Position numbers and translations under genes: made by a program. Under the pieces are notes generated by a model, which was not told the origin of the DNA, searched no databases, and saw nothing but the letters and a program-made list of their open reading frames with translations. From Syntrophales bacterium (GTDB lineage: Bacteria > Desulfobacterota > Syntrophia > Syntrophales > UBA2210), in assembly GCA_963666365.2 (NCBI GenBank), contig CAXXNF010000001.1, forward strand, positions 1,024,001 to 1,088,000: a stretch of DNA of 64,000 bases, read 5' to 3'. Below are positions 4,053 to 10,222 of the stretch, piece after piece. How positions within the stretch are numbered: position 1 is the stretch's first letter; each line of letters opens with the position of its first letter.

Positions 4053-5708
4053 ATACCTCGCATTTACGGATACACAACCGGCCTCAAAACGGCCGAGTTC
4101 AAATCCCTGGAACAGCTCTACCGGCGGCGCGTGCCCCCGGACCGCATCATCACGCAGGAGTATGCCCGCGCCCTTGTGGAACTCTCCCGTCGCATCGGTC
4201 GTCAGATCGGCGTGCTCATAAGCCGCCGGGGAGAAACCGGTTATGTCATCGTCGGCGATACCCGTCAGATCGTCATCCCCGATCTCACGGGTTTTCGGGC
4301 GGCGTCGACGCGGCTCAAGGGGCTGCGCCTCCTTCACACCCATCTGAAGGACGAACCGCTCAGCCGGGATGACCTGACCGATCTCGCCCTCCTCCGGCTC
4401 GACCTTGTGGCGGCCCTTACCATCGACCCGGAGGGACTGCCCGGTCCCATGCATATAGCCCATCTGATTCCGGAAAATCCCACCGGCAGCTACTGGCTGG
4501 TGCTGGATCCCTGCCGTCCCTCGGAGCTTTCCATCAACTTCGCGTCCTTTATTCAGGCCCTTGAAGGGGAGTTCGCCCGCACACAGAAGCTGCGAAAGGT
4601 GGAATCCAGGGACCGGGCGATTCTTATACGGGTGGAGACCGATCCCGCCGCCGAGGCGAAGGCATCCCTGGATGAGCTGAAGGAACTGGCCCGGTCCTCC
4701 GATGTGTCCGTTTTCGATGCGGTCATACAGTACCGCAGTCAGGTCGATCCGAAATTTCTCATGGGGAAGGGGAAGCTTTCCGATGTGGTGATCCGGGCGC
4801 TGCAGATGGGGGCGAACCTTCTCATTTTCGATCACGAGCTTACCCCCGCCCAGGCGCGATCCATCGCGGACTTCACCGACATGAAGGTAATCGACCGGAC
4901 CCAGCTCATTCTGGACATCTTTGCCCAGCGGGCCCTGTCCCGGGACGGCAAGATTCAGGTGGAACTGGCCCAGCTCAAGTATCTTCTTCCCCGCCTCGTG
5001 ACAAAAAACACGGCTCTTTCCCGCCTTACGGGAGGGATCGGCGGCCGGGGTCCCGGCGAGACGAAACTCGAAATCAATCGGCGACGGGTCTATGACCGCA
5101 TCAACCATCTTGAAAAAGAACTGGTCCGCATCAGAAGGGGGCGGGGCGAGCGGCGCGGGCGAAGAAAAAAAGAGGGGCTTCCCGTCATATCCATTATCGG
5201 CTACACCAATGCGGGAAAATCGACCCTGTTGAACGCGCTGACCGCAAGTACGGTCCTCGCGGAAGACCGTCTCTTCGCCACCCTCGATCCGAAGAGTGCA
5301 CGCCTGCGGTTCCCCCGCGACCGGTCGGCCATCATCACCGACACGGTGGGCTTTATACGCGCCCTTCCCAAAGAACTCATGGCCGCCTTCAGGGCAACCC
5401 TGGAGGAACTGCACGAGGCCGATCTTCTGCTCCATGTCGTCGACGCCTCCAATCCCGCCTTCGAAGATCAGATGGGCGCCGTGGAGATAATCCTCGAGGA
5501 TCTTTCGCTGCAGGCGAAACCCCGCATTACGGTGTTCAACAAGGAAGATCTCTGTGCGGACAGGGAGGCGCTTGCACATCTCTGCACACGGTATCGTGCA
5601 ATTTCACTTACAGCACGTGATGCAACCACCTTTTCCCCTCTGCTGGAAAAAATTGAAAGGGTGATTCTCAAATCGGAAAAGGGGTGGCGGGACCAAAATA
5701 ACTGTTGA
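4053..5708 (+). CDS. hflX: GTPase HflX (long N-terminal form); start probably non-canonical ATA at 4053 (ORF track uses GTG 4131)
   Basis: [21 protein letters not shown] (G1), LFATLD (G2), DTVGF (G3), NKED (G4); in-frame upstream [12 protein letters not shown]...LEQLYRRR resembles the long HflX N-terminus. Confidence 0.93.
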
Positions 5709-5802
5709 CTTTTCGCATCTTTTTTCATAAAGGTAGGCCGATTTTACTATGAAAGGCGCCTTCGCAATGATGACGGATCAGGAGACAGAAGGTACACGGT
5801 CG

Positions 5803-5877
5803 ATGCTATCTCTTGCGGTATTATCCCTCTTGTGCCTCGCTCTTCCCGGGCGACATACCCGGGCCTCATCGGCGTAA
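5803..5877 (+). CDS. Putative Leu-rich attenuator leader peptide MLSLAVLSLLCLALPGRHTRASSA (24 aa; could start in frame at 5749, 5767 or 5770)
   Basis: 7 Leu codons among the first 14; stop codon lies next to the antiterminator arm; followed by a terminator just before the operon. Confidence 0.65.
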   Translation: MLSLAVLSLLCLALPGRHTRASSA

Positions 5878-5944
5878 AGGAACGATTGTCACGGCACGCG
5901 CACACTCGATGAGGCCACGGATTGAATCCGTGGCCTTTTTTTTT
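5845..5944 (+). promoter_or_regulatory. Transcription attenuator (protector / antiterminator / terminator)
   Basis: CCCGGG 5845-5850 pairs with CCCGGG 5858-5863; GGCCTCATCG 5862-5871 pairs with CGATGAGGCC 5907-5916; terminator AGGCCACGGAT 5912-5922 / ATCCGTGGCCT 5926-5936 with T-run to 5944. Confidence 0.78.
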
Positions 5945-5957
5945 AAAGGAGCAGCCC

Positions 5958-6521
5958 ATGTACGAAATCATATGGCACGGCCGGGGCGGCCAGGGAGTCG
6001 TCCTGGCTTCTGAAGTTCTCGCCGAAGCGGCATATTTTCAGGGGTTCAAGGGCGTCACCTCGGCGCCCACCTTCGGGCCCGAGCGAAGGGGCGCGCCGCT
6101 TGCGGCGTCGACGCGCATCGCCGACGAACCGCTGCGGACCTTCTCTCAGATCGAAGAGGCCGATATCTCCGTCGTGCTCGACGAATCCCTCTTCAAAGTG
6201 GTGGATATCTGGGGGGGGCTCAAAGAAGGGGGCATTATGGTGATCAATTCTTCCGCGCCCCCCGGCGAGCATTTTCTCGTTAAGGCCGTGACGGTTCTGT
6301 GGCTGGATGCCGCGGCCGTCGCCCGGGAACACCGGTTGACCGCCGGCGGGGCGCCCGTGGTCAACACCCCTCTTCTGGGGGCGCTGGCGCGCGGATGGGG
6401 ACTGGTCGATCTCAATAACATTGAAAAGGCACTCGGCATCAAAATGTCCAGTGCCGGCGCCTATGTCAATTTTCAGGCGGTGAAGACCGCCTATGAAAAA
6501 ACGGTGATTATACCAGTGTGA
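5958..6521 (+). CDS. 2-oxoacid:ferredoxin oxidoreductase gamma subunit (PorC-like)
   Basis: HGRGGQG and FGPERRGAP motifs; SD AAGGAG before ATG 5958. Confidence 0.92.
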   Translation: MYEIIWHGRGGQGVVLASEVLAEAAYFQGFKGVTSAPTFGPERRGAPLAASTRIADEPLRTFSQIEEADISVVLDESLFKVVDIWGGLKEGGIMVINSSAPPGEHFLVKAVTVLWLDAAAVAREHRLTAGGAPVVNTPLLGALARGWGLVDLNNIEKALGIKMSSAGAYVNFQAVKTAYEKTVIIPV

Positions 6522-6528
6522 GGATACT

Positions 6529-6822
6529 ATGGAACGACGAGATGAAAATATATCGGGCGTCTGCACACCCGCCGTGGGCGAGGCGGGAAAAACCGGCGAC
6601 TGGAGCGACGTACAGCCCGTGATAGACCACTCAAAATGCACCCCCGCCGTCAAGGGGAGGGCCTCCTGTTTTCTCTGCTGGCTCTACTGTCCCGAAGGGG
6701 TGGTTCGGATGACCATTCCCGTGGAGATCAATCTCGACTACTGCAAGGGGTGCGGGATCTGCGCCGAAGAATGTCCCCCCAATGCGATCACCATGGTCCG
6801 AAAGGAGGAAATCCATGAATGA
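6529..6822 (+). CDS. 2-oxoacid:ferredoxin oxidoreductase delta subunit (2x[4Fe-4S], PorD-like)
   Basis: KTGDW, CxxCWLYCP and YCKGCGICAEECP ferredoxin motifs. Confidence 0.92.
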   Translation: MERRDENISGVCTPAVGEAGKTGDWSDVQPVIDHSKCTPAVKGRASCFLCWLYCPEGVVRMTIPVEINLDYCKGCGICAEECPPNAITMVRKEEIHE

Positions 6823-8035
6823 CATCCGCATCATCACGGGAAACGAAGCGGCAGCCCAGGCAGTCCTGCTCTGCGAACCGAAGGTGGTGGCCGCCTATCC
6901 CATTACTCCTCAGACCAAAATTTCGGAACTCCTTTCCGGGTATGTCGAGGGGGGCGTGCTGAAGGCGGAGTATGTACGCGTGGAAAGCGAACATTCCGCC
7001 ATGACCGTTCTCATATCGGCGTCCACCGTTGGGGCCCGGGTCTTCACGGCGACAAGCTCCAACGGACTTCTCTACATGCACGAACAGCTTCACTGGGCCG
7101 CGGGGTCCCGTCTTCCCATCGTCATGTGCTGTGTAAACCGCGGCGTAGGCGCCCCCTGGTCGATCTTCAACGATCAGCAGGATTCCATGTCGCAGCGCGA
7201 CACGGGCTGGATTCAGATATACTGCAGGGACAATCAGGAAATCATCGACACCGTCATCCAGGCCTACCGGATCGCCGAGCAGGTCTATATTCCCACCATG
7301 GTCTGTTATGACGGATTCGTACTCTCCCATACGATGATGCCCGTGGAAATCCCCGACGCGGGACTGGTGAAAGGGTTCCTTCCCCCCTACCGGCCCCACA
7401 CCTTCCTCGACCCGGAACGCCCCCGGACGATCAATCCCGTCTTCTTCCCCTGGCAGCGGCGCAATGCCGAGGGGGTGCTCTGCGACGGCTATATGGAAAT
7501 GCGCTACAAGCTCCAGCACGATTTCGAACGGTCCAAAGGCGTGATCGAGGAGGTCAACAGGGAGTTTGCCGAACGGTTCGGACGGGATCACGGCGGTCTC
7601 CTCTGGGAATATAGAACCGACGACGCAGACATCCTCGTGGCCGGCATGGGATCGATCGCCCAGGAAGCAACGCTCGCCGTCGACGCCCTGCGGGCCGAGG
7701 GAATAAAAATCGGCGTCGTGGGGATTCGCACCTTCAGGCCCTTCCCCCGCGAAAAGGTGGTCGAAGCCTTCAGGGGGGCCCGCGTCATCATCGTGTTTCA
7801 GAAGGCAATAAGCTACGGCTATGAGGGGGGCCTCACGTCCGAATTGAAAGCGGCGCTTTACGGGACGGGAATCACGGCGCCGGTGCACGATTATGTCGCC
7901 GGCCTGGGAGGACGGGATGTAAAAACACGGGAACTGGTGGAAGCGATCAGAACCACCCTTGATGCCGTCGCACGGGGAGAACGGCACAACAAAACAACCT
8001 GGCTCAACTGTTATACGGGTGACACTCATGCATGA
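6815..8035 (+). CDS. 2-oxoacid:ferredoxin oxidoreductase alpha subunit (PorA-like)
   Basis: TGNEAAA, AAYPITPQT, VESEHSA, RVFTATSSNGL, GLGGRD motifs; SD AAGGAGG. Confidence 0.93.
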   Translation: MNDIRIITGNEAAAQAVLLCEPKVVAAYPITPQTKISELLSGYVEGGVLKAEYVRVESEHSAMTVLISASTVGARVFTATSSNGLLYMHEQLHWAAGSRLPIVMCCVNRGVGAPWSIFNDQQDSMSQRDTGWIQIYCRDNQEIIDTVIQAYRIAEQVYIPTMVCYDGFVLSHTMMPVEIPDAGLVKGFLPPYRPHTFLDPERPRTINPVFFPWQRRNAEGVLCDGYMEMRYKLQHDFERSKGVIEEVNREFAERFGRDHGGLLWEYRTDDADILVAGMGSIAQEATLAVDALRAEGIKIGVVGIRTFRPFPREKVVEAFRGARVIIVFQKAISYGYEGGLTSELKAALYGTGITAPVHDYVAGLGGRDVKTRELVEAIRTTLDAVARGERHNKTTWLNCYTGDTHA

Positions 8036-8927
8036 GAATTTATTTAAACTACATGAAAAAGAATACATTCTGCCCGGCAGCCGCGCCTGTCAGGGATGCG
8101 GGCTTTCTCTGGCCTACCGCTACATTCTGAAAGCGCTCCGCGAAAACACCATTGTGGCAATCCCTCCGAGCTGTCTCTGCGTGCTTCACGGCCTCTACCC
8201 GAATACCTCGGTCATCGTGCCGGCGCTCAATATCACCTTCGCCGGGAACGCCGCCTCGGCATCGGGGATCGTGGCGGCGCTGACCGCGCTGAACAGGCCC
8301 GACATCACCGTGCTCGCCCTTTCGGGGGACGGCGGCACCTATGACATCGGCATCCAGTCCCTGAGCGGCGCCGCCGAACGGAACACCGATTTCATATTCG
8401 CCTGCTATGACAATGAAGCCTACATGAATACGGGGACACAGCGCTCCGGCGCCACCCCGCTGGGCGCCGTCACCACCACCACGCCCCTCCTGACAAAACA
8501 GGATCACAAAAAAGATTTCATCAAGATCATGGAGGCCCACAATATTCCCTACATTGCCACAGTTTCACCCGCTTATCCTCAGGATCTTTATGAAAAATTC
8601 GTAAAGGCGAAGCGCATCAAGGGTACGCGCTACATTCAGATCGACACCCCCTGTCCTCCCGGATGGGGCTACCCGACGAAAGACACCGTGAAAATAGGGA
8701 AACTTGCCGTGGAAACGGGTATGTTTCCGCTGATTGAAATCGAAGACGGCAAACTGCGTTTCACCGGCAGAAGCCATACCCTCACCACAAAGGGGAAACG
8801 CACCCCCATCATTCATTACGTGGAACGGCAGACGCGCTTTAAAAAGATGAGTATCGAACAGCTCAATCAGCTGCAGAGCTGGGTGGACAAACGCTGGAAC
8901 GACTTTATGAGGCAGGCGGAACTCTAA
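8028..8927 (+). CDS. 2-oxoacid:ferredoxin oxidoreductase beta subunit (TPP-binding, PorB-like)
   Basis: ACQGCG, GDGGTYDIG...YDNEAYMNTGTQRS TPP motif, PCPPGW. Confidence 0.93.
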   Translation: MHENLFKLHEKEYILPGSRACQGCGLSLAYRYILKALRENTIVAIPPSCLCVLHGLYPNTSVIVPALNITFAGNAASASGIVAALTALNRPDITVLALSGDGGTYDIGIQSLSGAAERNTDFIFACYDNEAYMNTGTQRSGATPLGAVTTTTPLLTKQDHKKDFIKIMEAHNIPYIATVSPAYPQDLYEKFVKAKRIKGTRYIQIDTPCPPGWGYPTKDTVKIGKLAVETGMFPLIEIEDGKLRFTGRSHTLTTKGKRTPIIHYVERQTRFKKMSIEQLNQLQSWVDKRWNDFMRQAEL

Positions 8928-10222
8928 GGGAGCAGGGAGGCGATGAGATCGGCATAGCGCGCCGCTGCTCCTCTGTTGTTCTGCACAATCTCTTTTCCGG
9001 CCTCGCCGCGCCGGAGACGCTGTTCCGGATTGTTCAGCATATCCGCGATTCCTGCGGCAAGTTCTTCTTCTCCGGTGACGGTCACGCCGGCGCCGACGGA
9101 ACAGAGCTGATCGCGTTCGTCCATGAAATCATCCATATGGGGGCCGAAAAAGACAACCTTCCCCCAGGCGGCCGCCTCGAGGACATTCTGCCCTCCCCGC
9201 GGCACGAGACTTCCCCCGCAAAACACCACATGGGCGCATCCGTAGAGCGTAAAAAGCACCCCCATGGCATCGACAAGCACCACAGGCCGGTTTCCCCGCG
9301 GCACTCCTTTTACGATTTCACTATAGACGATTACATCACGATCGAACCCTTCCGCCTCAAGGAGAGTGCGAATCTCGCCGGATCTCTCTATATGCCGCGG
9401 CACAAGTACAAGCACCACATCGGGGAATTGCCGGCGCAGCTTCTTAAATGCCGCGATGACCGTCTTTTCCTCACCCCCATGGGTGCTGCCGGCGACAAAG
9501 ACAGGGGTGTGCACGGACAGGGACAGCCGGCCGGCCATTGCGCCGGCGCGGGCAGGATCGGCCTCTGCGGCAAGGCTGTCGAACTTGGCATTTCCCATCA
9601 CAAACAGGCGAGAGGAATCCACTCCCATCGATATGAGCCTTTCCTCGTCAATCCTGGAAATGACGCCCGCCGCATCGATCATTTTCAGCACCCCCTGCCA
9701 GAAAAATCTCGTCGCCCGATATTTTTTAAAGGACCGTGGAGAAATACGGCCGTTCACCATCACCACCCTGACGGCGCGCCTTCGGCAGGCGCGAATGAAA
9801 TTGGGCCAGATCTCCGTCTCCACGGGGACAAATACATCGGGGGCGACGCCATCCAGCACCTTATTTATTACGTGTGGAATATCAAGGGGATAATAGAGAT
9901 GGCTCGTCGCATGGGGCACAAGCCGGACCGCCGCATCCTGCCCCGTTTCGGTGCTCGTCGAAAGGACGATGCACCCCTCGGGATAGCGTACACGAAGCGC
10001 TTCGACGATCGGCGCCGCCGCCGTGACTTCACCGACCGACACGGCATGCACCCATATGCGGGGGGTTCCCTTCATAACGCTGAAGAGTTCCGGCGGATTG
10101 ACGCCGAACTTCGGCCCCATGCTCTTCCTGTACTTGCCGGTCACACAGACCCGCCAGGCGTAGTAGGGCGCCAGAAAAAGGGCGGCCAGGCCCAGCAGCA
10201 CATTGTAGAGGAAAAATTTCAT
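8924..10222 (-). CDS. waaA: 3-deoxy-D-manno-octulosonic acid transferase
   Basis: IWVHAVSVGE, ETEIWPN, NGRIS, GNAKFD, AGSTHGGEE, VPRHIER, GGQNVLE motifs. Confidence 0.95.
   Translation of the reverse strand: MKFFLYNVLLGLAALFLAPYYAWRVCVTGKYRKSMGPKFGVNPPELFSVMKGTPRIWVHAVSVGEVTAAAPIVEALRVRYPEGCIVLSTSTETGQDAAVRLVPHATSHLYYPLDIPHVINKVLDGVAPDVFVPVETEIWPNFIRACRRRAVRVVMVNGRISPRSFKKYRATRFFWQGVLKMIDAAGVISRIDEERLISMGVDSSRLFVMGNAKFDSLAAEADPARAGAMAGRLSLSVHTPVFVAGSTHGGEEKTVIAAFKKLRRQFPDVVLVLVPRHIERSGEIRTLLEAEGFDRDVIVYSEIVKGVPRGNRPVVLVDAMGVLFTLYGCAHVVFCGGSLVPRGGQNVLEAAAWGKVVFFGPHMDDFMDERDQLCSVGAGVTVTGEEELAAGIADMLNNPEQRLRRGEAGKEIVQNNRGAAARYADLIASLLP

Follow-up and report, generated by a model that had tools for sequence, protein, structure and literature searches.

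What regulates the operon for a four-subunit 2-oxoacid:ferredoxin oxidoreductase (OFOR) in this Syntrophales bacterium, and what might that regulation say about the reaction the enzyme performs? The window (the whole 64,000-nt stretch of DNA analyzed) carries a short Leu-rich open reading frame (ORF) and an intrinsic terminator before the first OFOR gene, which a sequence-only reading had interpreted as a leucine attenuator. Comparison of related sequences indicates that a Leu-responsive, ribosome-mediated (leader-peptide) transcription attenuator very probably controls this gamma-delta-alpha-beta operon of the POR/VOR family. The interpretation is supported by a leader found at 29/30 loci, by compensatory changes in its helices, and by a paralogous leader on leuA-leuCD. 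Coordinates refer to the window and its forward (+) strand unless marked otherwise.

Anatomy of the Leader

The 24-codon ORF described previously was read directly (ATG 5803 to TAA 5875–5877; peptide MLSLAVLSLLCLALPGRHTRASSA), and its codons 2–14 hold seven Leu codons (CTA, CTT, TTA, CTC, TTG, CTC, and CTT). At the genome Leu frequency of 9.0%, the binomial probability of at least seven Leu in 13 codons is 5e-5. The Leu codons and coordinates are as claimed, but this ORF is only the 3′ part of a longer one. The frame is open from ATG 5749 (5749–5877 in the ORF list), and translation likely starts at 5767 or 5770, giving 36 or 35 codons, because the Shine–Dalgarno (SD) sequence GAAAGG and the "ATGACAGG" start of orthologues align with GAAAGG (5751–5756) and ATGATGACGG (5767–5776) of the window. 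The putative leader ORF thus reads MMTDQETEGTRSMLSLAVLSLLCLALPGRHTRASSA followed by TAA (5767–5877), in the same frame as 5803–5877. In 18 of 29 leaders, an SD-like word lies 5′ of the start chosen here. The control region, with seven Leu codons in 13 (5806–5844), ends in a conserved CTC GCT CTT triplet (5836–5844).

Downstream, the letters confirmed the proposed protector hairpin P1 (CCCGGG-CGACATA-CCCGGG, 5845–5863), whose arms (5845–5850 with 5858–5863) were also recovered by window folding. Direct reading likewise confirmed the antiterminator, in which the 5′ arm GGCCTCATCG (5862–5871) and the 3′ arm CGATGAGGCC (5907–5916) form 10 perfect pairs; the leader stop codon lies 3 nt further 3′ of the 5′ arm. 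The intrinsic terminator (5912–5944) consists of an 11-bp stem, the loop TGA, and a run of nine T residues (5936–5944), with arms GGCCACGGAT (5913–5922) and ATCCGTGGCC (5926–5935) extended by an A5912–T5936 pair, and it ranks top in the terminator scan (12 pairs, 7 G-C). Only 13 nt (5945–5957), including AAGGAG (5946–5951), separate the T-run from the gamma-subunit ATG, which is at 5958 and not 5959. The terminator and its spacing stand as first described, but its mutual exclusion with the antiterminator extends over only 4–5 nt (A5912 and the common GGCC, 5913–5916). In the unmasked MFE fold, P1, the antiterminator, and an 8-bp terminator remnant coexist side by side, and the folding energy of 5740–5960 is unexceptional (z = −1.26; 23 of 200 shuffles fold equally well). 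The leader anatomy itself, namely SD, Leu-rich ORF, P1, antiterminator, and terminator within 5767–5944, is real.

The gene upstream is hflX (4131–5708; TIGR03156 GTP_HflX, 441.6 bits, cut-off 216.75), and its stop codon TGA (5706–5708) falls within a −35-like box. The candidate promoter region (5705–5733) comprises TTGACT (5705–5710) and, after 15–17 nt, CATAAAGG (5726–5733). A TTGAC box is found 20–110 nt 5′ of the leader start in 27/29 leaders; a simple sigma-70 scan gave no site at 5705–5733, so this assignment is based on conservation only.

In the mechanism that we propose, transcription would start just 3′ of hflX and a ribosome would translate the leader of 35–36 codons. With ample charged tRNA-Leu, the ribosome would reach the stop codon at 5875 and cover the antiterminator 5′ arm; the terminator would then form and transcription would end before gamma. 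Scarce Leu-tRNA would stall the ribosome on the Leu codons of the control region, melting the 5′ half of P1 and leaving 5862–5871 free to pair with 5907–5916. This pairing would deprive the terminator stem of its basal GGCC and A5912, beside the T-run, and polymerase would enter the operon. Leu-dependent stalling and read-through are what we infer from this arrangement.

Conservation and Covariation of the Leader

Orthologues of the alpha subunit (at least 53% identity) are present in 33 of 41 related genomes. The sequence-only reading had proposed a search for Leu-rich upstream ORFs and stems at orthologous operons; both are conserved 5′ of gamma at 29 of the 30 such loci fetched within the order, L027 being the exception. 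Covariance model R1 was run on a 151-genome sample of the order; among its best 30 matches, 29 lie upstream of gamma and one upstream of leuA. Nineteen of these best 30 came from genomes outside the model (18 upstream of gamma and one upstream of leuA). No such leader was found on homologues outside the order (beta subunits 53–63% identical) or on family f15 homologues inside the order.

Leu accounts for 43% of the 14 core codons in OFOR leaders and 41% in leuA leaders, and for 21% and 25%, respectively, of all leader codons, against 9.0% genome-wide. Val makes up only 6% of the OFOR-leader core. CTG supplies 15% of leader Leu codons and 35% of those genome-wide. Six leaders (five from one genus, plus L028) have only two or three Leu codons in the last 13. 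Within the conserved triplet, the first codon is CTC in 26/29 leaders and the third is Leu in 29/29 (CTT in 23), with a variable middle codon (GCT in 17, then ACT, GTC, ACC, GTT, GCA, GCC, CCC, and CTC). The wobble-level conservation of this triplet may reflect a constraint on the RNA instead of codon choice.

In 24/29 leaders, the stop codon falls inside the antiterminator 5′ arm or immediately 3′ of it, at a distance of 22–35 nt from the terminator arm downstream; in the other five, all from one genus, it is in the P1 loop. The nucleotides GCCCGTCGTTTTTAGG encode RPSFLG in the leuA leaders and SPVVFR in the OFOR leaders, and the frame across P1 differs between the window and another leader (L005). 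These frame differences over GCCCGTCGTTTTTAGG and P1 point to an RNA-level constraint.

In related clades, all three helices (terminator, P1, and antiterminator) are backed by compensatory changes. Of the 11 terminator pairs predicted from an alignment of 29 leaders, 7 carry such changes. A hairpin with a folding energy of −5 kcal/mol or below occupies the P1 site in 28/29 OFOR leaders, and within the class III clade 91.5% of P1 cells are paired, with 4/6 pairs compensatory and 11 compensatory cells (matched by 0/500 shuffles). For the antiterminator, class III and leuA leaders together gave 84.7% paired cells and 5/11 compensatory pairs; 0/500 shuffles reached either the percentage paired or the covariation score, and slid controls gave 29–63%. 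The antiterminator of the window's own clade (seven sequences) appears conserved and hardly variable, with 94.3% of cells paired, one compensatory cell in 70, and 266/500 shuffles reaching the observed percentage.

With a masked ribosome footprint, modeled for the window only, the three bottom terminator pairs had a probability of 0.63 without a ribosome; this rose to 0.98 when the ribosome sat at the stop codon and fell to 0.25 when it sat on the Leu codons. Equilibrium modeling across the family gave mixed results: moving the ribosome from the stop to the Leu position lowered the terminator-base probability by at least 0.3 in only 13/29 OFOR and 6/18 leuA leaders. The truncated-transcript test discriminated poorly (7/29 OFOR and 11/18 leuA leaders), and antiterminator arms without the GGCC anchor were no better than shuffled ones (mean z −0.42; z ≤ −2 in 2/47 leaders).

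Amino-Acid-Specific Leaders in the Same Genome

A second full-length leader, itself outside the model, is located at C1:68087–68227 (−), directly before leuA (50.8 bits, E 2.4e-11). Its peptide begins VTILGQLISLYAIVLLGLSLALTL and contains an identical AGC CTC GCT CTT. The leuA gene scored 786.9 bits with NF002086 (cut-off 532), and leuC (651.5 bits, cut-off 610.65) and leuD follow downstream. In other genomes, 17/20 second copies precede an ORF starting with the LeuA N-terminal motif. This genome also has an NWWW leader before trpE, a YFSFYWYFY leader before DAHP synthase, a FIISGVIIII leader before one ilvB copy, and a VVLSSVYVLVVVL leader before the other. With Ile-, Val-, Trp-, and aromatic-rich leaders on these genes, leaders here are amino-acid specific. 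The occurrence of the same kind of attenuator on the leucine-synthesis genes suggests that the OFOR helps to make leucine when it is short, and hence acts anabolically. The sequence-only reading had asked whether leuABCD is missing from the genome, which proved not to be the case: leuA, leuB, leuC, and leuD are all present, and the enzyme is therefore no stand-in for a missing pathway.

The Enzyme Downstream of the Leader

The operon encodes gamma (5958–6521; TIGR02175 PorC_KorC, 166.2 bits, cut-off 81.1), a delta subunit resembling a 2×[4Fe-4S] ferredoxin (6529–6822; TIGR02179, 85.0 bits, cut-off 60.05), alpha (6815–8035; ATG 6815 after AAGGAGG, 8-nt overlap with delta, motif YPITP), and a TPP- and [4Fe-4S]-binding beta (8028–8927; ATG 8028, 8-nt overlap with alpha, motifs IPPSCLCV and VPALN). 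A waaA-like Kdo transferase gene (8924–10222, − strand; NF004388, 342.4 bits, cut-off 438; PF04413, 191 bits) points toward the operon, which therefore has beta as its last gene, and no conserved codirectional gene follows beta among the 30 loci.

Alpha scored 456.5 bits with PorA_Arch (cut-off 550), 375.7 with VOR-alpha, and 368.0 with POR-alpha; beta scored 361.3 bits with VOR-type PRK11864 and 349.1 with PorB (both cut-offs 405). The VOR score is thus at or above the POR score in both subunits, and all NCBIfam POR and VOR equivalog scores are under cut-off. A paralogous four-subunit enzyme at C2:1688–1691 kb passes the PorB cut-off of 405 (434.6; VOR-beta 355.4), and its alpha scores 432.0 for POR vs. 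332.7 for VOR. This better-scoring, pyruvate-type paralogue lies apart from the operon, whose enzyme falls into a POR/VOR-like subfamily of its own. The most parsimonious guess is that the operon's enzyme would carboxylate isovaleryl-CoA reductively, yielding 2-oxoisocaproate; this assignment follows from the regulatory logic and is tentative, falling somewhat short of an even chance.

Alternative Explanations

Somewhat less likely than that assignment is a reading in which the leucine attenuator stands but its enzyme supplies the ordinary LeuABCD route during leucine shortage, either with 2-oxoisovalerate made from isobutyryl-CoA or as a second pyruvate synthase, and does not make 2-oxoisocaproate. 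The complete de novo leu genes, coregulated through a homologous leader, would fit such a role, as would family scores midway between POR and VOR and all under cut-off. Characterized VORs take several branched-chain 2-oxoacids, which also favors it. However, a better-scoring POR paralogue is already present, and a supplier of 2-oxoisovalerate would also serve valine, whereas the core of OFOR leaders is rich in Leu and poor in Val; one ilvB copy in this genome does have a Val-rich leader.

The remaining alternatives question the attenuator itself. An RNA switch sensing a protein, small molecule, or tRNA, with the short ORF incidental, would account for the conservation as nucleotides, wobble positions included, of CTC GCT CTT, the P1 loop ACATA, and the arm GCCCGTCGTTTTTAGG, and for the lack of a conserved frame across P1 and the arm. 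Yet no Rfam family, whether T-box, Leu_leader, or any other, gave a match at E up to 10; the ORF stays open, with the motif in a Leu-x-Leu frame in 28/29 leaders and its third codon always Leu; Leu enrichment extends 5′ of the conserved nucleotides into nonconserved sequence; and sister leaders in this genome bear the amino acid cognate to the operon they precede. We consider such a switch improbable. The peptide could instead be a small hydrophobic (membrane) peptide with its own function, given its hydrophobicity and a conserved central LLCLAL-like segment, but its C-terminal half switches frame between clades, its stop codon follows the RNA arm and not protein length, and its composition (Leu 21% vs. 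Ile 3.6%, Val 8.5%, and Phe 2.8%) is less mixed than expected of a generic hydrophobic helix, making this role highly improbable. Equally remote is the outcome that the sequence-only reading had named as contrary to its proposal, in which the hairpin and T-run terminate hflX only and the operon has its own promoter downstream. There is no other terminator between the end of hflX at 5708 and 5912, and hflX transcripts probably stop at 5912–5944 as well. The 13-nt gap to gamma, SD included, is nevertheless too short to hold a promoter; the leader and terminator travel with the operon at 29/30 loci, whereas hflX was detected upstream in only 7/30; the TTGAC box precedes the leader start; and the same architecture recurs before leuA, which has cimA as its upstream neighbor.

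Comparison with Known Systems

The enzyme resembles the four-subunit pyruvate:ferredoxin oxidoreductases (PDB 9bt4 and the C2:1688–1691 kb paralogue) in its gamma-delta-alpha-beta architecture, its TPP and cluster motifs, and YPITP in alpha. For its beta subunit, the match to 9bt4_C has E 2.7e-61, and identity is 45% to the paralogue beta, which has the higher PorB score (434.6 vs. 349.1). The contrast in beta motifs noted earlier is real: IPPSCLCV in the window corresponds to ATGCMEV in the POR-like paralogue and PTGCLEV in 9bt4_C. All 30 orthologues have P(P/A)(S/C)CL(C/T)V ... P(A/C/S)(L/I/V)N, whereas the POR paralogue, 9bt4_C, and the oxalate enzyme 5c4i_C have TGC(M/L)(E/Y)V ... PWIH at the same site.

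Ferredoxin-dependent conversion of a branched-chain acyl-CoA and CO2 into the 2-oxoacid that corresponds to a branched-chain amino acid is described in PMC7356843, citing Allison et al. 1962 and 1966, and is the reaction that the regulatory logic predicts here. The passage of that article stating this route describes no leucine regulation at the gene level. Unlike the route presented there, the window enzyme, whose activity is predicted, is under the NCBIfam VOR cut-offs and occurs alongside a complete LeuABCD. An anabolic VOR was reportedly described in Methanothermobacter by Tersteegen et al. in 1997. A literature search found no attenuator for this enzyme family.

Like the enterobacterial leuL (Rfam RF00512 Leu_leader), ilvGMEDA, ilvBN, and trp leaders, the window leader is a short, putatively translated ORF rich in codons of the regulatory amino acid, with an antiterminator 5′ arm that would be covered by a ribosome at the stop codon and an intrinsic terminator immediately before the first structural gene; as with leuL, a homologous copy in this genome appears to control leuA. 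It differs in matching RF00512 neither by sequence nor by model (E up to 10) and in its interspersed Leu codons (seven in 13, against a run of four in leuL). Competition between its P1 and the antiterminator is slight, with an overlap of 2 nt, and the antiterminator and terminator overlap by only 4–5 nt. The host belongs to a syntrophic Desulfobacterota-type lineage, to which a hit to the porin family NF033939 points, unlike that of enterobacterial leuL. The target is a ferredoxin-dependent 2-oxoacid oxidoreductase and not a textbook biosynthetic enzyme; a known mechanism appears to act on an unusual target.

The leader peptide and its leucine codons

The operon consists of four genes that encode the gamma (5958-6521; TIGR02175, 166.2 bits against a cut-off of 81.1), delta (6529-6822; TIGR02179, 85.0 bits against 60.05), alpha (6815-8035) and beta (8028-8927) subunits of a 2-oxoacid:ferredoxin oxidoreductase (OFOR). 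The genes are translationally coupled, with two 8-nt overlaps, and are followed by a convergent waaA-like gene; no conserved co-transcribed gene was found after beta that would give a clue to the pathway. Upstream of the leader lies hflX (TIGR03156, 441.6 bits).

A 24-codon ORF had been proposed ahead of the gamma gene from the sequence alone. Direct reading confirmed a frame from ATG 5803 to TAA 5875-5877, translating as MLSLAVLSLLCLALPGRHTRASSA, and the seven leucine codons claimed for it were found in codons 2-14 (CTA, CTT, TTA, CTC, TTG, CTC, CTT). The frame is open from 5749, and the 24 codons are probably the 3' part of a longer leader. The Shine-Dalgarno (SD) sequence GAAAGG and the ATGACAGG start conserved in the orthologues align with 5751-5756 and 5767/5770 of the window, so the leader probably has 35-36 codons and starts at 5767/5770. 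The ORF then has its own ribosome-binding site (GAAAGG, 5751-5756, ahead of ATG 5767/5770) and continues to the TAA at 5875. Given 9.0% leucine in the long ORFs of the genome, at least 7 leucines in 13 codons has a binomial probability of 5e-5. A promoter scan by a simple rule returned no sigma-70 site.

Conservation of the leader

A search with the alpha subunit in 41 related genomes gave matches of at least 53% identity in 33. Loci were returned for 30, all with gamma upstream of alpha, and the leucine-rich upstream ORF and stems that the sequence-only reading expected before orthologous operons were present ahead of gamma in 29 of them. The common build comprises, in order, a TTGAC box, a short ORF, a hairpin, a conserved arm, a variable spacer and a terminator with its T-run. 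The TTGAC box lies 20-110 nt from the leader start in 27 of the 29; the ORF runs through a conserved CTC-NNN-CTT, and the terminator has the form GGCCATGGG...CCCATGGCC. The exception is L027 (genome G026), the only one of the 30 operons rejected as a carrier of the leader, in which a different hairpin with a T-run and a 5-codon ORF precede gamma.

The CTC-NNN-CTT motif is spanned by the ORF in all 29 leaders, with an SD-like word before the chosen start in 18. Its first codon is CTC in 26 of 29 and its third is a leucine codon in every leader (CTT in 23), while the middle codon takes nine forms. The median is 6 leucines per 13 codons over the 29 leaders, with at least 5 in 22 and at most 3 in 6. 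Leucine accounts for 21% of all codons in the OFOR leaders and 25% in the leuA leaders described below, versus 9.0% genome-wide; in the core of control codons, the values rise to 43% and 41%, with valine at 6% of the OFOR core. CTG, the commonest leucine codon of the genome (35%), makes up 15% of leader leucine codons, the baseline being that of the window's genome only. The genome has five tRNA-Leu isoacceptors with one gene each. CTC GCT CTT (window positions 5836-5844) is kept to its wobble positions in OFOR and leuA leaders (loci L003-L030 and L074-L091), and the single tRNA-Leu(GAG) gene should read both of its leucine codons. Selection for one isoacceptor and an RNA contact are candidate explanations for this wobble-level conservation.

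In the window the terminator follows hflX, and the sequence-only reading had named as an alternative that the hairpin only terminates this gene. Because hflX was found upstream in only 7 of the 30 loci, the element travels with the operon, not with hflX. In two loci from family f15 of the same order (L149 and L150), hflX is still the upstream neighbor of a divergent OFOR whose beta subunit is ~50% identical, and between the two genes there is only a short stretch devoid of a leader. The synteny of hflX with an OFOR thus predates the attenuator or is more widespread than it.

A covariance model was built from the 29 leaders and used against 151 genomes of the order. Matches with E up to 0.01, including partial matches to the terminator only, occurred in 150. 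Among the best 30 of the 150 matches listed (a further 765 are unlisted), 29 lie before gamma and one before leuA. The training set had not included the genomes of 19 of the 30, and these 19 matches are divided into 18 ahead of gamma and one ahead of leuA. The sample drawn at class level consists of this order alone. A phylum-wide sample comprised 151 genomes, of which 146 lie outside the order, and the top matches in these 146 reached at most 47 bits. Seven of these loci were read and none has an OFOR beside the match: two are Ile/Leu/Val leaders before ilvB, one is an aromatic leader before a DAHP synthase gene, one is a second aromatic leader, two are leucine-rich leaders that have no gene within reach, and one is ambiguous. 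No leader was found beside OFOR homologues from outside the order and from family f15 in the 13 of 20 regions where gamma was found; the other 7 have no gamma within 3 kb upstream of beta.

Leader hairpins and the predicted switch

All three helices claimed for the window can be read in its sequence. In the first, P1, CCCGGG 5845-5850 pairs with CCCGGG 5858-5863. The 10-bp antiterminator pairs GGCCTCATCG (5862-5871) with CGATGAGGCC (5907-5916) without mismatch, and the terminator is formed by GGCCACGGAT (5913-5922), a TGA loop and ATCCGTGGCC (5926-5935), extended by A5912-T5936. Nine T residues (5936-5944) follow, and the 13 nt between this run and the gamma ATG at 5958 hold AAGGAG (5946-5951). 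This terminator ranked first in a consensus terminator scan of 5000-9500. The antiterminator and the terminator had also been called mutually exclusive. An overlap does exist, but it is confined to A5912 and GGCC 5913-5916, and in the unconstrained minimum-free-energy fold P1, the antiterminator and an 8-bp remnant of the terminator coexist. The leader as a whole has an unexceptional folding energy (z = -1.26; 23 of 200 shuffles equally stable).

Covariation differs among the helices. The terminator is present in 29 of 30 loci, with compensatory changes in 7 of its 11 pairs. For P1, pair counts apply to the ten leaders of the class III clade, as the MAFFT alignment gives classes I and II no common register; in these ten, 91.5% of cells are paired and 4 of 6 pairs show compensatory changes (11 cells), values matched by none of 500 shuffles and compared with 41-59% in slid registers. 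The energy of P1 relative to shuffles is weak (mean z -0.77), and no consistent P1 was seen among the leuA leaders. In one genus (L009, L011, L012, L014 and L007) the arms of P1 are flipped, CCC-ACATA-GGG replacing GGG...CCC, and the leader stop, a TAG, falls within the P1 loop, with 2-5 leucine codons left.

The antiterminator has three versions, each specific to a clade, which differ in the sequence and placement of their arms. Across nine class III OFOR leaders and 18 leuA leaders, 84.7% of cells are paired and 5 of 11 pairs show compensatory changes (12 cells), one position being A-U in 8 sequences and U-A in 9; none of 500 shuffles matched either the percentage paired or the covariation score, and slid controls gave 29-63%. 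In the seven sequences of the window's own clade, pairing in the 10-bp helix is at 94.3% and the spacer between its arms diverges freely; this set has one compensatory cell only, and shuffles do not set the helix apart. Cognate arms pair at -14.1 versus -11.4 kcal/mol for non-cognate arms, a small difference confounded by relatedness, and the duplex energy of the arms minus the GGCC anchor was not significant against shuffled arms. The stretch GCCCGTCGTTTTTAGG is translated as RPSFLG in the leaders of leuA and as SPVVFR in the OFOR leaders of other families, and the window and L005, an orthologous locus, read through the P1 loop ACATAC in different frames. Judged from such comparisons, conservation past the leucine codons is at the level of the RNA.

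The stop codon of the window lies 3 nt past the 5' arm of the antiterminator. Across the family, 24 of 29 leaders have 22-35 nt between the stop and the terminator, and in the other five the stop falls within the P1 loop, a few nucleotides ahead of the arm. A ribosome at the stop codon (5875) would mask 5862-5871 and let the terminator form, and one stalled on the leucine codons (5806-5844) would mask the 5' arm of P1, freeing 5862-5871 to capture the base of the terminator stem. Footprint-masked folding of the window gave a probability for the three bottom terminator pairs of 0.98 with the ribosome at the stop, 0.25 at the leucine codons and 0.63 unmasked. The same equilibrium pattern holds in 13 of 29 OFOR leaders and 6 of 18 leuA leaders, and folding of truncated transcripts with ribosome masks fits the window and is mixed over the family. 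GGCC is self-complementary and takes other partners; a mixed equilibrium picture is expected of a kinetic switch, but it leaves the step from structure to regulation as an inference. No RNA run of this organism was found; one metatranscriptome run contained 8% of the words sampled, and the runs that contain all of them are not labelled as RNA. Taken together, we consider it highly probable that the element is a conserved leucine leader-peptide attenuator.

Related leaders in the same genome

A covariance search of the window's own genome returned a full-length match on contig C1 (68087-68227, minus strand; 50.8 bits, E 2.4e-11). A separate TTGACA box and SD accompany this copy, which encodes the leader VTILGQLISLYAIVLLGLSLALTLRHISRVLPAPLWRE with 11 leucines and shares AGC CTC GCT CTT with the OFOR leader. 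The gene directly after its terminator is leuA (NF002086, 786.9 bits against a cut-off of 532), in a cluster with the order cimA, leader, leuA, leuC, leuD and with leuB on the opposite strand. Twenty lower-scoring second copies were fetched from other genomes, and 17 lie ahead of an ORF starting with the LeuA N-terminal motif of this genome, the motif on which these leuA calls rest; the other three are ambiguous, namely L082, L091 and L077, the last at the end of a contig.

Further leaders were found on the minus strand of contig C2. The leader of trpE (TIGR00564, 548.4 bits against 517.7) reads MNRNWWWTRIKRKGCIRR, with WWW, and that of a DAHP synthase gene (NF006421, 509.2 bits against 335) reads MGINCRADNYFSFYWYFYHTSVCPFAWRS, with the aromatic-rich YFSFYWYFY. 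Each of two ilvB-like genes (~2031540-2031630 and ~2034040-2034135) has a separate leader and terminator; an Ile-rich leader (MTTERNFIISGVIIIISSHTRGWLMV) precedes one and a Val-rich leader (MTGRFGVVLSSVYVLVVVLTGTAARSR) the other, which suggests two acetolactate synthase isozymes under separate Ile and Val control. As these sister leaders are amino acid specific, the leucine-rich leader is a specific signal and not one of general hydrophobicity. The DAHP synthase (~1525740-1525900) and trpE (~1517690-1517830) leaders have GGCC...GGCC terminators as in the leucine leaders. A 9-nt unit, GACCARAYA, occurs in tandem arrays of 4 to ~14 copies; one array lies just upstream of the leuA-leader promoter (C1:68332-68371, minus strand) and another in the region before the trpE leader (C2:1517855-1517921, minus strand). 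As an operator common to the two leaders the unit was rejected, since at least 18 sites occur genome-wide.

Identity and possible metabolic role of the enzyme

OFOR paralogues are numerous in anaerobes, and their substrates can seldom be read from sequence. The operon encodes POR_N, PFOR_II and TPP_enzyme_C domains and belongs to the general pyruvate/2-ketoisovalerate OFOR group: the gamma and delta subfamily models were passed, and PF01855, PF17147, PF02775 and PF01558 scored above their cut-offs. The NCBIfam equivalog cut-offs were missed both for 2-oxoisovalerate-type enzymes (VOR; beta PRK11864, 361.3 against 405; alpha PRK08366, 375.7 against 646; delta PRK09623, 75.8 against 166) and for pyruvate-type enzymes (POR; PorB, 349.1 against 405; PorA_Arch, 456.5 against 550; PorC, 147.7 against 270). 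The unusual beta motif noted earlier was borne out, with TIVAIPPSCLCV...VPALN in the attenuated enzyme versus TIVVNATGCMEV...LPWIH in a paralogue; the solved PFOR beta subunit 9bt4_C has PTGCLEV...VPWIH, unlike the attenuated enzyme. The variant motif is present in 30 of 30 orthologues and in all 21 homologues read, which are 50-63% identical; one belongs to family f15 and the other 20 to different orders of the phylum.

The paralogue is a second four-subunit OFOR on contig C2 (1688-1691 kb), which passed the PorB (434.6 against 405) and gamma PRK08534 (228.2 against 225) cut-offs. In the surrounding locus (L103, C2:1685500-1694500), genes for a two-subunit fumarate hydratase lie ahead of it and a gene for a GltD/NfnB-like NAD(P)-binding iron-sulfur flavoprotein of 639 aa comes after it; the locus may form a module for pyruvate synthesis that includes a dedicated partner for electron input. 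No nifJ-type PFOR in the genome scored above the cut-off, and such an enzyme was rejected as the housekeeping form.

If leucine shortage switches the operon on, the role of the enzyme would be leucine supply and not degradation. The sequence-only reading had raised the possibility that leuABCD is missing; the leucine pathway proved complete, so the operon is no replacement for it. 2-Oxoisovalerate and pyruvate are both live alternatives as products. The attenuated enzyme scores slightly higher against VOR than POR models (beta 361.3 vs 349.1, alpha 375.7 vs 368.0), and the paralogue scores well higher against POR (beta 434.6 vs 355.4, alpha 432.0 vs 332.7). The leader shares its leucine specificity with that of leuA, the ilvB leaders being rich in Val or Ile, and 2-oxoisocaproate from isovaleryl-CoA would therefore be the most economical product. 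We tentatively propose, as a possibility somewhat short of an even chance, that the enzyme is a dedicated, leucine-repressed 2-oxoisocaproate synthase using isovaleryl-CoA, CO2 and reduced ferredoxin. According to a passage in PMC7356843, citing Allison et al. (1962, 1966), isovalerate carboxylation is a leucine route in anaerobes. The conserved attenuator, homologous to that of leuA, would place one OFOR subfamily in the leucine regulon and makes it a candidate for a ferredoxin-driven route from isovalerate to leucine in syntrophs of methanogenic habitats. More broadly, the amino acid in the leader peptide could serve as a substrate label for otherwise unassignable OFOR paralogues; the genome marks leuA, the two ilvB copies, trpE and the DAHP synthase gene in the same way.

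Comparison with known attenuators

An Rfam cmscan of 5000-7000 with E up to 10 returned four chance-level matches to unrelated families, with no Leu_leader (RF00512) and no T-box. The literature search, which covered papers available without subscription, found no attenuator or leader peptide on this enzyme family and no attenuation in Syntrophus or the delta-proteobacteria; a 2004 study reportedly compared attenuators in proteobacteria. The RNA family and its target operon are new and the mechanism is known. Classical leader-peptide attenuation probably serves Leu, Ile, Val, Trp and aromatic operons across the lineage.
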